Made by a program: the position numbers and the translations under genes
In this document: piece after piece, positions 42-2,359 of the stretch
Layout: each line of letters starts with the position of its first letter
How positions within the stretch are numbered: the stretch's first letter is position 1
Assembly: GCA_026400695.1 (NCBI GenBank)
Contig: JAPLON010000104.1
Span: 1-30,893 of the forward strand
DNA: 30,893 nucleotides
Direction of reading: 5' to 3'
Source: Pseudomonadota bacterium
GTDB lineage: Bacteria; Pseudomonadota; Alphaproteobacteria; Paracaedibacterales; CAITNM01
Notes under the pieces: model-generated
The model's input: only the letters and a program-made list of their open reading frames with translations
Database searches by the model: none
What the model was told of the DNA's origin: nothing

Positions 42-66
42 TATAGTGACCCCCAAAGTCAAGAAC
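42..66. repeat. IS3 right terminal inverted repeat (IRR)
   Basis: Its reverse complement GTTCTTGACTTTGGGGGTCACTATA aligns with 2698-2722. Confidence 0.85.
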
Positions 67-96
67 TTATATCTTTTAGGTGTGGTACAAGGAATT

Positions 97-240
97 AAAC
101 AGTTGGCTTGAAAGAACATTGATCACAAGAATCGCTCTTAGAAAAAGCAGCTGTTTCGTAGAGTAGGATTAGCTTTGAACGAATTGCTGACAGGACAGCT
201 TTAGAGCTGCCGCTGTGTACAATAAGAAGAAGGGGGCTTA
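97..240 (+). ncRNA. Putative IS110 bridge RNA (target-binding loop ~97-156, donor-binding loop ~171-238)
   Basis: Hand-folded stems: 97-109/145-156 with inner 120-123/131-134, and 171-176/233-238 with inner 190-200/205-216. The loops carry AAGAAC and CTTAG (match the target) and AATTGCT and ATAAG (match the circle junction). Ends are approximate. Confidence 0.75.
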
Positions 241-242
241 CC

Positions 243-1187
243 ATGTTAACAACTGTAGGACTAGACGTATCTAAAGCCACACTCGATTTTTGCGTTTTAA
301 AAACCAAGGACGACCGAAGATTTTATAAATTCGATAATAACGCAGATGGCCATCAAAAACTGTTGGATTTGTTGGCAAACCTAGAAGTAGCATTAGTGGT
401 TTTAGAGCCAACCGGAGGTTATGAGGCCACAATTTGCGCTGTATTGCATCGCCATAAATATGCTATCCATAGAGTGAATACATTATCATTTCACAAGTTT
501 GCTAAATCTTTAAACTAAAAAAAAAATCGGATCGATGCGTATAAGCTAGCTTACTATGGAGTTAGTATGGATGTTAAAGCAAATTATCACCAATCAGAAT
601 ATCAGCAGCAACTTAAGGATTTGGTGGCTAGACGAGAGTACTTGGTTAGTCAATTATCCAATGAAAAGAAAAATTTAAAACATAAAGAGCTCTCAAAAAT
701 AAAATATTCTATTAGCTCTCATATTACTTACTTAGTGAATGCGATTAAGGAATTGGATAAGCAAATTGATGAGTTTGCCTTATCTGAAGAAGATCAAGCC
801 AAGAAAGTTGAGCTGGCATGTTCTGTTCCAGGTATAGGTAAAACTCTTAGTTATAAGTTGTTAGCCTTTTTGCCTGAATTAGGGGATGATTCATTTGATT
901 TAAATGAATTGACAGCGATCACAGGGCTTGCTCCATACTGTAGGGACAGTGGAAATAAATCAGGTAAGCGCTTTATTCGAGGAGGGCGCAAAATCCCACG
1001 AGATGCTTTATATATGGCGGTGTTGAGTGGTTTTCATAAAATTCCTTTGTTAAAAAATTTAAAAGAAAGATTGCTAAAAAAAGGTAAACCTAAAACGGTT
1101 GCGATTGTTGCTTGTATGCGAAAGCTGTTGGGAATTTTGCACTCCATTCTTAAAAGGCAAGAGGAATTTGTTGAGCAGATCGTTTAG
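243..1187 (+). pseudogene. IS110-family recombinase/transposase, split by an in-frame TAA
   Basis: N-terminal RuvC-like GLDVSK and VLEPTGGYE motifs, C-terminal SVPGIG and GLAP..RDSG motifs. ORFs 243-518 and 567-1187 are in the same frame: AKSLN-TAA(516-518)-KKNRIDAYKLAYYGVSM, with an A10 run at 517-526. The usual KTDxxDA motif reads KKNRIDA. Confidence 0.9.
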
Positions 1188-1199
1188 AAGACATTAGTA

Positions 1200-1273
1200 G
1201 TTACCCACAAGTCCACAGTCCTCCCAGAGCCCTTAATTGCTCTGGGCATTGGCTCGTGGACACTGTGGGTAAC
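1200..1273. repeat. Long interrupted palindrome in the IS110 right end
   Basis: GTTACCCACA/TGTGGGTAAC, GTCCAC/GTGGAC and CCCAGAGC/GCTCTGGG nested stems around an 8-nt loop. Confidence 0.85.
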
Positions 1274-1322
1274 ATGTGTCCCAAGCGGAAATTATTTTTT
1301 AAAAAACATTCAAAGATAATTG

Positions 1323-2359
1323 CTAAGCAGCTATTTTTGAGGAGAGATTCATCGTTTGTTTAACTTTCTTTTGCTGCCTAATTTTTTCTTTTGTTTTTCC
1401 GTTTGTTATTGTAGTTGGGCCTTGTGGATCTCGTGGGTAAGTCGAAGACTTATCCACATATCTACAGGCCTGAGTTCCCTTGCTTTCTAGACTTCCCACC
1501 AACTTCGGCATAAATGCCCACTGAGTAGCTTCCGCTTTACCTGTCATCACCTCATGCGGCCTATGCTGGTTTATTCCGCTGTGCCTGCGTGAATAGTTAT
1601 ACCAGTGAATATAAGCATCCAAGCTTGCCTTGGCTTCCTTTACACTTTCGTAAGTATTTAAGTAAACTTCTTCATATTTTACTGTTCTCCAGAACCTTTC
1701 AATTGGTATGTTATCTAGGGCTCGGCCCTTGCCATCCATACTGATTCTTACCCCAAGCAACGTCAGTTGATAAATCCATTCCTGGCTGGTGAACTGGCAG
1801 CCTTGATCAGAATTGATAATCTTTGGTTTGTAACCCTTGGTAATCGCCATTTCTAGCGCCCTTAAACAACTTTCCGTATCAAGGCTCGTGCTAATATGCC
1901 ACCCCATCACATGGCGACTCAACACATCAATTAATACGGTTAAATAGATAAATCCAGTGGCTGTCTTGATGTAGGTGATATCTACACACCAGACATCGTG
2001 CGGCTTTAACGGTGGATATCCTTCAACAAATATGGAAACACTTTATGTTCATGATTACGCTTGCTTAGGTTTTTCTTTGGATACACCGCCTCCAAACCCA
2101 TCAACTTCATCAATCGATAAACCTTTTTGCGGTTGATAGGGTAACCTAAGTCCTTTAAATCCCAGGTAATCCGTCGATATCCTTGAAATGGCCTCATGGC
2201 ATAAATCTCTCGAATTTCATTCATGATTGTGACCGTATCATCAGCACAGGCCTTGGGCCTCACATAGCAGCTTGAAAGATTCACATCTAAAAGCTTGGCT
2301 CGAGAACGTTTGCTTAAATCTTGATGCCCACTTTTTACAAGTTCTTGCCGTTCTTTCAT
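1323..2359 (-). pseudogene. IS3 orfB DDE transposase, frameshifted near 2010-2020
   Basis: The 2006-2359 ORF ends LLKDIHR*. The adjacent frame continues PLKPHDVWCVDITYIKTATGFIYL..IDVLSRH into the 1323-1925 ORF, with D (VDITY), D (NSDQG) and E (IERFW). One missing base explains the break. Confidence 0.92.
1418..1470. repeat. Imperfect palindrome in the IS3 orfB tail containing a perfect DnaA-box sequence (TTATCCACA, 1450-1458)
   Basis: GGCCT..GTGGAT..GTGGGTAAGTC-GAA-GACTTATCCAC..ATCTAC-AGGCC. Confidence 0.7.

Follow-up and report, generated by a model that had tools for sequence, protein, structure and literature searches.

A predicted junction promoter of an IS110 subfamily, conserved in 11 lineages and vestigial in a Paracaedibacterales copy

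Does the excision of an IS110-family insertion sequence create, at the joined ends of its circle, a promoter that reads the bridge RNA of the element? This question is raised by the element at positions 66-1324 of contig JAPLON010000104.1 of assembly GCA_026400695.1 (Alphaproteobacteria; Paracaedibacterales; CAITNM01), the forward strand of which was analysed over 30,893 nt (hereafter the window). A preliminary description of this DNA had proposed that the right end (RE) of the element, when joined to its left end (LE) through a single CT dinucleotide, supplies a -35-like hexamer that exists only in the circle and lies 17 nt from a -10-like hexamer aimed at the bridge RNA. That observation is confirmed, and its interpretation is partly supported, in silico only. 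We consider it probable (about 0.65) that a junction promoter is a family-wide feature of this IS110 subfamily and that the copy in the window retains it in vestigial form.

Both the encoded protein and the ends place the element in the IS110 family, and it belongs to the IS110 group of insertion sequences guided by a bridge RNA. The plus-strand reading frame (243-1187) matches PF01548 (DEDD_Tnp_IS110; E 1.5e-11) and PF02371 (Transposase_20; E 7.3e-10), i.e. an N-terminal DEDD RuvC-like domain and a C-terminal Tnp_20 domain, and the RDSG serine motif was seen in the protein alignment. All insertions have CT at both ends and lack terminal inverted repeats. Upstream of the gene lies a non-coding LE of 175 nt (68-242), and the RE comprises 135 nt (1188-1322). 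The sole repeat shared by the ends is a 6-bp subterminal inverted repeat, in which AAGATA (1313-1318) is the reverse complement of TATCTT (70-75). The features that define the element are as follows:

66-67, plus strand: left core CT; CT borders both ends here and in every related insertion
68-77, plus strand: LE start TATATCTT, consisting of the right donor half and the repeat arm TATCTT (70-75); invariant in 11 lineages
243-1187, plus strand: recombinase gene, identified by its Pfam domains and broken in comparison with intact relatives of 313-315 aa
1313-1322, plus strand: RE terminus AAGATA-ATTG, consisting of the repeat arm and the left donor half; AAGATA(A/G)TTG-CT is kept in all lineages
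1323-1324, plus strand: right core CT, present also at the ends of relatives

No second copy of the element was detected by blastn or tblastn in its own assembly (1.57 Mb in 168 contigs), and the ends were checked with relatives. A sister genome of the same genus (G012) carries several copies, 85-89% identical to the element, all of which are broken at contig ends and have unrelated flanks; only their ends, and not their interior, are assembled. Homology to the element is bounded in every relative as flank-CT-TATATC...GATAATTG-CT-flank. The same borders were seen in a Rickettsia metagenome-assembled genome (MAG), a Tisiphia genome and a Caedimonas MAG, as well as in seven more metagenome lineages, which were reached by protein search and look-up of their contigs; the protein of lineage L084 has 68 member sequences. 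The comparative set comprises 11 lineages, with recombinase identities of 48-89%, and 13 distinct left flanks, plus the right flanks of relatives. The donor of all lineages has the form AAGATA-(A/G)TTG-CT-TA-TATCTT, in which the two 6-bp arms of the subterminal inverted repeat enclose a centre of 8 bp; IS110 donors with such a short repeat have been described by Durrant et al. (PMC11208160). The ends of the 66-1324 element, and the junction sequence that they define, are real.

The RE terminates with A1319 T1320 T1321 G1322, followed by the core C1323 T1324, and the LE runs from T68, preceded by the core C66 T67. Joining of the two through one CT gives TTG-CT-T, i.e. the hexamer TTGCTT, the first three bases of which are TTG 1320-1322 and the last of which is T68. 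In the integrated element the hexamer at the same place is GAACTT (63-68). Downstream of TTGCTT the LE contributes two features, the first ending in the TGn (T83 G84 G85) of an extended -10:

69-85, plus strand: spacer of the putative junction promoter, 17 nt, with the extended -10 TGn as TGG at 83-85
86-91, plus strand: -10-like TACAAG; T and A at its first two positions are invariant in 11 lineages, and the closest relative has TATAAG

All of these letters and coordinates were found, on re-reading of the sequence, to be those given in the preliminary description. The junction that it had deduced is also correct, since the ends match the insertions of relatives and the donor loop of the bridge RNA specifies the same sequence independently: its 5' side, the left donor guide (LDG), contains AATTGCT, and its 3' side, the right donor guide (RDG), contains ATAAG, the reverse complement of CTTAT. 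The donor guides thus match the junction AATTG-CT-TAT.

Comparison of the 11 lineages revealed that the arrangement is conserved well beyond the window. The RE ends with TTG-CT and the LE opens with CT-TATATCTT in every one of them. In the LE alignment, columns 1-10 are invariant and columns 11-16 are variable (0.5-1.15 bits), after which TG at columns 18-19 is kept in 10 of the 11 lineages (1.56 bits) and TA at columns 21-22 is again invariant (2.0 bits). The -10 hexamers (TACAAG, TATAAG, TATAAA, TATGAG, TACGAA, TATATA, TATAGA and TAATAG) always lie 17 nt past TTGCTT, with the exception of one copy with 16 nt. In every lineage, 4-7 nt separate the hexamer from the base at which pairing of the target-loop stem begins. 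At the -35 place, the integrated copies read GAACTT, AATCTT, GATCTT, GTACTT, ACCCTT, GGCCTT, AGCCTT, GTTCTT, TAGCTT, CAACTT and ATTCTT. All 13 distinct left flanks lack TTG at this place, and the -35 therefore exists only at the junction, as had been claimed. The layout of a junction promoter, with TTG from the RE plus CTT, a spacing of 16-17 bp and TGnTAnnAn from the LE, is consequently present in 11 lineages and absent from the integrated state.

A rough sigma-70 log-odds matrix, with approximate frequencies from classical Escherichia coli compilations, gave 5.95 bits for the junction and -5.2 bits for the integrated state in the same register. For the window and four scored lineages (G012, the Rickettsia MAG, Tisiphia and Caedimonas), the same-register scores were about +3 to +6.5 bits at the junction and -0.7 to -6.7 bits when integrated. 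The host genome contains the full motif TTGNNN-N16/17-TGnTAnnAn at a frequency of one per 14 kb on each strand. A site that scores as high as the junction is expected somewhere across a junction in about one quarter of cases by chance. A consensus promoter scan of the integrated window returned no match, by criteria that would reject the junction too. The match of the single sequence is weak, and only through conservation in 11 lineages does the observation exceed chance.

The RNA at which the putative promoter is aimed is a bridge RNA of two modules, for which the following features, with the left flank that holds the target, were delimited:

48-65, plus strand: left flank, the outer part of the right inverted repeat (TGACCCC...) of the IS3-family element in which the IS110 element is inserted; left target half TCAAGAA at 59-65
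97-156, plus strand: target-binding module, with basal stem 97-109/145-156, left target guide 111-119 and right target guide 135-141
173-233, plus strand: donor-binding module, with closing stem 173-176/230-233, left donor guide GAATTGCT at 181-188, apical hairpin at about 190-216 and right donor guide AATAAG at 221-226
230-236, plus strand: Shine-Dalgarno (SD)-like AAGGGGG, separated by 6 nt from the start codon ATG (243); the 3' strand of the donor closing stem forms its 5' half

A consensus fold, followed by a pair count on this structure, showed 96.9% of the cells to be paired, against 39-55% with slid partners, and 16 pairs to be compensatory. The target basal stem (12 pairs, 100% paired) has compensatory changes in 7 pairs, the donor apical helix (8 pairs) in 7 and the donor closing helix (4 pairs) in 1 in the 7-sequence alignment. 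Folds of the single LE sequence were no better than those of shuffles (z +0.8 and +0.7), and the case for the bridge RNA structure therefore comes from covariation only. No Rfam family was found in a scan of positions 1-3000 at E <= 1. About 30 nt separate the core from the target-loop stem, and this interval shows no conserved pairing, i.e. no counterpart of the 5' stem-loop of IS621-type RNAs.

In the relatives, the guides correspond well to their sites. Where the flanks are known (8 lineages, the best copy of each), 7-9 of 9 and 6-7 of 7 positions match, and three lineages with the RE variant GATAGTTG have AAGTTG as the guide. The right target guide of the window copy is in register and agrees with its target at 5 of 7 positions (CTTAG vs CTAAG). 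The left target guide at 111-119 (AAAGAACAT, AAAGAAC-AT), set against the target TCAAGAA-CT (59-67), gives a match of AAGAAC shifted by one base from the register of the relatives, which reflects either decay after insertion or a tolerated bulge.

The preliminary description had noted that the donor closing stem covers the SD sequence; the overlap is real and concerns the 5' half of the latter. The coupled translational control that it had read into this overlap stands on thin ground, given that the helix has 4 bp and is not chosen by single-sequence folding. The helix closes the donor loop in all lineages, as CUUU/AAGG, CCUU/AAGG, CUUU/AAAG or UCUU/AAGA; one of its pairs changes on both sides in the 7-sequence alignment, and the remaining forms were read from a further alignment.

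Taken together, a mechanism may be proposed in which excision would join ...AAGATAATTG to TATATCTT... through one CT and thereby convert TTG + CTT into TTGCTT, placed 16 or 17 bp ahead of the conserved extended -10 TGnTA(Y)AAR. From the sequence we infer that RNA polymerase would use this junction promoter and would begin transcription at the first bases of the target-loop stem, at about 97-98 in the window. The gap between hexamer and stem is 6 nt here and 4-7 nt elsewhere, so that in every lineage transcription beginning about 7 nt past the -10 would coincide with the first bases of the target stem. The same start had been predicted before, and A97, 6 nt past the hexamer, is indeed the first paired base of the target-loop stem that is supported by covariation. 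One transcript would then comprise the bridge RNA of about 140 nt and the recombinase mRNA, produced mainly in the excised state. As long as the element is integrated, the -35 place consists of the last three target bases plus CTT, and the former are never TTG, which would leave only a -35-less extended -10 and read-through.

That IS110 circles form junction promoters, a premise of the preliminary description, is established for IS621 and ISPpu10, and the present case is a predicted further member with a different geometry. Durrant et al. (2024, PMC11208160) demonstrated that, when IS621 is excised, a sigma-70-like promoter is restored across its core. Small RNA-seq reads start at this promoter in IS621 and five orthologues, and deletion of its -35 box abolishes function in cis (PMC11208160). 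According to a 2026 study (PMC13626964), linear IS621 has no junction promoter and relies on read-through, its excision depends on transcripts of this kind, the linear form also yields bridge RNA at a low level, and the junction promoter was proposed to boost expression after rare excision. The junction of ISPpu10 forms a strong hybrid promoter, with the -35 from the RE and the -10 from the LE, and ISPpu9 has a native promoter and gains nothing from its junction (PMC12288879). Junction promoters (Pjunc) of the IS3, IS21 and IS30 families, IS492 and ISEc11 are cited in passages of PMC12288879 and PMC13626964.

The element shares with IS621 and its orthologues the DEDD plus Tnp_20 recombinase, the CT core, the lack of terminal inverted repeats, a long LE coding for a two-loop bridge RNA with guides that match target and donor, and a short subterminal inverted repeat around the donor. 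It would also share with them a sigma-70-like promoter found only at the joined RE-LE and aimed at the bridge RNA and the recombinase gene. Unlike in IS621, the core sits inside the -35 (TTG-CT-T), to which the RE gives three bases only, possibly together with an upstream A/T-rich stretch, and the last -10 position is a purine in all lineages. The LE and the RNA are also shorter (175 and about 140 nt, compared with 191 and 177 nt in IS621). In the consensus of 103 orthologues, a 5' stem-loop precedes the target-binding module (PMC11208160), whereas the transcript predicted here begins directly at the target-loop stem.

The ISPpu10/ISPpu9 pair of Pseudomonas putida is likewise of the IS110 family and minicircle-forming, and in ISPpu10 the -35 and the -10 come from the same ends as proposed here. 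These elements differ in that they target repetitive extragenic palindromic (REP) sequences in a gammaproteobacterium, and their DNA sequences are unrelated. The Pjunc systems resemble the present case in that the promoter is built from two circle ends and raises transposase expression in the transposition intermediate only. In contrast, they are found in DDE or IS1111-group elements, with both promoter hexamers inside terminal inverted repeats, and the Pjunc of DDE families transcribes no guide RNA.

Several observations weigh against a junction promoter. The junction matches the E. coli consensus at 7 of 12 positions (TTGCTT 3/6, TACAAG 4/6), relatives at 6-8 of 12, and a score of at least 5.95 bits comes up about every 113 nt on each strand of the host genome. 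The junction falls short of the extended -10 sigma-70 class: TGn and A-11 are present, but position -7, the sixth base of the -10, is occupied by G in the window and by A or G throughout the 11 lineages, never by the normally essential T. One lineage (L089) lacks the TG as well, its hexamer being TACGAA. The missing final T had been considered plausible for an alphaproteobacterial promoter. This view is not borne out by the host genome, in which TTGACn-N16-18-TAnnnT upstream of co-directional genes was found 10 times in sense and once in antisense orientation, compared with 3 and 4 times for a final G (small numbers); the host appears to prefer a conventional final T. The integrated end may, moreover, not be silent, because a flank-LE hybrid composed of the IS3 repeat and the LE repeat arm (GTGACC-N18-TATCTT, 46-75) scores 8.1 bits and thus outscores the junction. 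TTG and CTT also belong to the donor site, so that their conservation needs no promoter, and the independent evidence is confined to TGnTA and its spacing. Finally, ISPpu9, which has no junction promoter, demonstrates that such promoters are not universal in the IS110 family, and a prediction by itself is therefore no proof.

These points can be taken in two directions. The extended -10 of the LE (TGnTAnAAn) could be self-contained and equal in strength in chromosome and circle, with the TTG of the RE kept as donor site and adding little; the promoter would then be real, though not junction-specific. Extended -10 promoters can function in E. coli without a -35, and the TGn is kept in 10 of the 11 lineages. 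The native promoter of ISPpu9, to which the junction adds nothing (PMC12288879), and the low-level bridge RNA from linear IS621 (PMC13626964) would be precedents for such an arrangement. It has to be reconciled, however, with a -10 that is non-consensus and lacks the final T, for which a TTG at 17 bp should matter, and with the drop of about 7-12 bits in the same-register score upon integration. The TTG is also invariant, although the donor is in principle reprogrammable and the base next to TTG does vary together with its guide. We regard a self-contained LE promoter as quite improbable.

The likeness to a promoter might, on the other hand, be fortuitous, in which case TGnTA(Y)AAR could be, for instance, an RNA-leader remnant of an IS621-like 5' stem-loop or a protein-binding site, and read-through, or a promoter closer to the core, would be the source of the bridge RNA. 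The ordinary score of the single sequence (once per 113 nt), the absence of the final T from every lineage and the fact that read-through transcripts drive the excision of IS621 (PMC13626964) all fit this explanation. In addition, alphaproteobacterial IS110s of 30-39% identity have a GC-rich hairpin after CT-TGTAnCT, the loop of which (GGTTATTGT or TGGTATTGT) loosely resembles the motif, and the junctions of the Rickettsia, Tisiphia and Caedimonas lineages hold TTTAGA or CTTACA-N17-TATCTT, which score as well or better. The latter site is, however, absent from the window, G012, L085, L087, L088, L090 and L098, and its TATCTT is the subterminal repeat arm. Inspection of the alignment revealed no conserved pairing partner of the motif, candidate hairpins changing register between lineages. 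The invariant TA, the near-invariant TG 1 nt upstream, the fixed distance of 16-17 bp to TTG and the 4-7 nt to the RNA stem are what is predicted for a -10. A chance resemblance is therefore rather unlikely in our judgement, and the family-wide junction promoter is the reading that we retain.

Three more specific candidates were rejected. As a common mechanism, an alternative junction promoter with TATCTT (LE 5-10) as the -10 and a -35 further inside the RE was discarded: good scores are confined to the Rickettsia, Tisiphia and Caedimonas lineages, and the TATCTT is accounted for as an arm of the repeat. Other -10 registers that would provide a final T (e.g. AAGAAT and AATAAT, 4 nt downstream) are not conserved. 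In the case of a hairpin between LE 1-6 (CTTATA) and the hexamer (complement TATAAG), most lineages no longer have complementary bases, and the register is not constant.

The circle itself was also sought. The assembled circle or tandem junction, AGATARTTGCTTATATCTT, had 0 matches in 62 genomes of the order and none in any fetched contig; circles are transient, and the absence of an assembled junction is therefore uninformative. The 33 exact matches to AGATARTTGCTTATATCTT in metagenome contigs were taken as chance, since none has IS110-like sequence on either side.

The preliminary description had overlooked that the copy in the window is dead. Alignment of DNA and protein revealed that the recombinase gene is interrupted in frame by a TAA (516-518) and has lost 3 nt, besides carrying several substitutions. 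Where the window reads SLN*KKNRIDA, the relatives, which are intact over 313-315 aa, read SLSLAKNDRIDA. AAT (Asn) at 525-527 replaces the GAT of the relatives at the first Asp of the D-x-x-D pair (N/T-D-x-x-D-A motif, window 510-530), a residue that we take, from knowledge of IS621, to be catalytic. The -10 region also differs at two bases, reading TGGTACAAG here and TGTTATAAG in the nearest relative. An exact-protein look-up of the 206-aa open reading frame (ORF) of the window found no record of it. Judged from these changes, together with the shifted left target guide, the copy is a decaying, immobile pseudogene relic. Its recombinase gene is broken, and any promoter here is therefore vestigial.

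The window copy, as a dead element, is itself of little consequence, and the case as a whole opens no new question. For the family, 11 lineages of intracellular alphaproteobacteria and relatives are gained as an example in which the junction-promoter logic of IS621 would be kept with another geometry and a shorter bridge RNA. Should this be confirmed, a natural compact bridge RNA without a 5' stem-loop and a crossover dinucleotide within the -35 would be comparison points for the engineering of bridge recombinases, and would show how tightly IS110 elements couple expression to the excised state. A more far-reaching proposal, which we put forward as tentative and consider doubtful, is that the subfamily of Rickettsiales- and Holosporales-type endosymbionts represents a minimal bridge system that acts as a switch of recombination state. 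In such a system the core would complete the -35, so that the promoter is on in the circle and off upon insertion, the RNA of about 140 nt would do without a 5' stem-loop, and the SD half within the donor closing stem would throttle translation upon folding of the RNA or binding of the recombinase.

Further observations concern the ends of the elements. The RE contains one more structure:

1200-1273, plus strand: very stable RE hairpin, downstream of the stop codon, with a second AATTGCT in its loop (1235-1241)

The segment 1188-1324 folds at -53.6 kcal/mol (z = -6.4). The hairpin is shared with the 87-89% identical relatives only and is absent from shorter relatives. No T-run follows it directly, and it is therefore not a canonical terminator. 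The AATTGCT of its loop duplicates the left half of the donor together with the core. Next to the junction -35, on its upstream side, the RE (1283-1319) contains an A/T tract (T6 A6 ... AAAGATAA), with AAA at the position of the proximal subsite of an UP element; the stretch is A/T-rich in all lineages, a property that it shares with the genome. The distant relatives with the GC-rich hairpin (L055, L056 and L061, from GC-rich alphaproteobacteria, 30-39% identity) start with CT-TGTAnCT, and the hairpin follows at once. Both of the distant copies examined sit in the same palindromic repeat, REP-like in appearance, and because of this shared repeated target the ends of these relatives are not placed to the base.

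The IS110 element is inserted within the right inverted repeat of a minus-strand IS3-family element, just past the stop of orfB; the core CT (1323-1324) and A1325 form the stop codon of this minus-strand gene. The assignment to the IS3 family is based on rve domains on the minus strand and on TGACCCC at 48, the reverse complement of which ends at 2718. In this host element (48-2718), the inverted repeats of which open with TGACCCC, orfB is split between two ORFs (2006-2359 and 1323-1925); with a single copy in the genome, the element also looks degenerate. No empty IS3 sites were found in the genome, because the IS3 element is single-copy as well.

A protein with 98% identity to the recombinase of the window (P0004) has the KNDRIDA motif intact. 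Its N-terminal 35 residues match a different repeat, present at many contig ends of the assembly that contains the window (C64, C103, C124, C148 and others), which suggests that these genomes harbour another mobile element, one of multiple copies.

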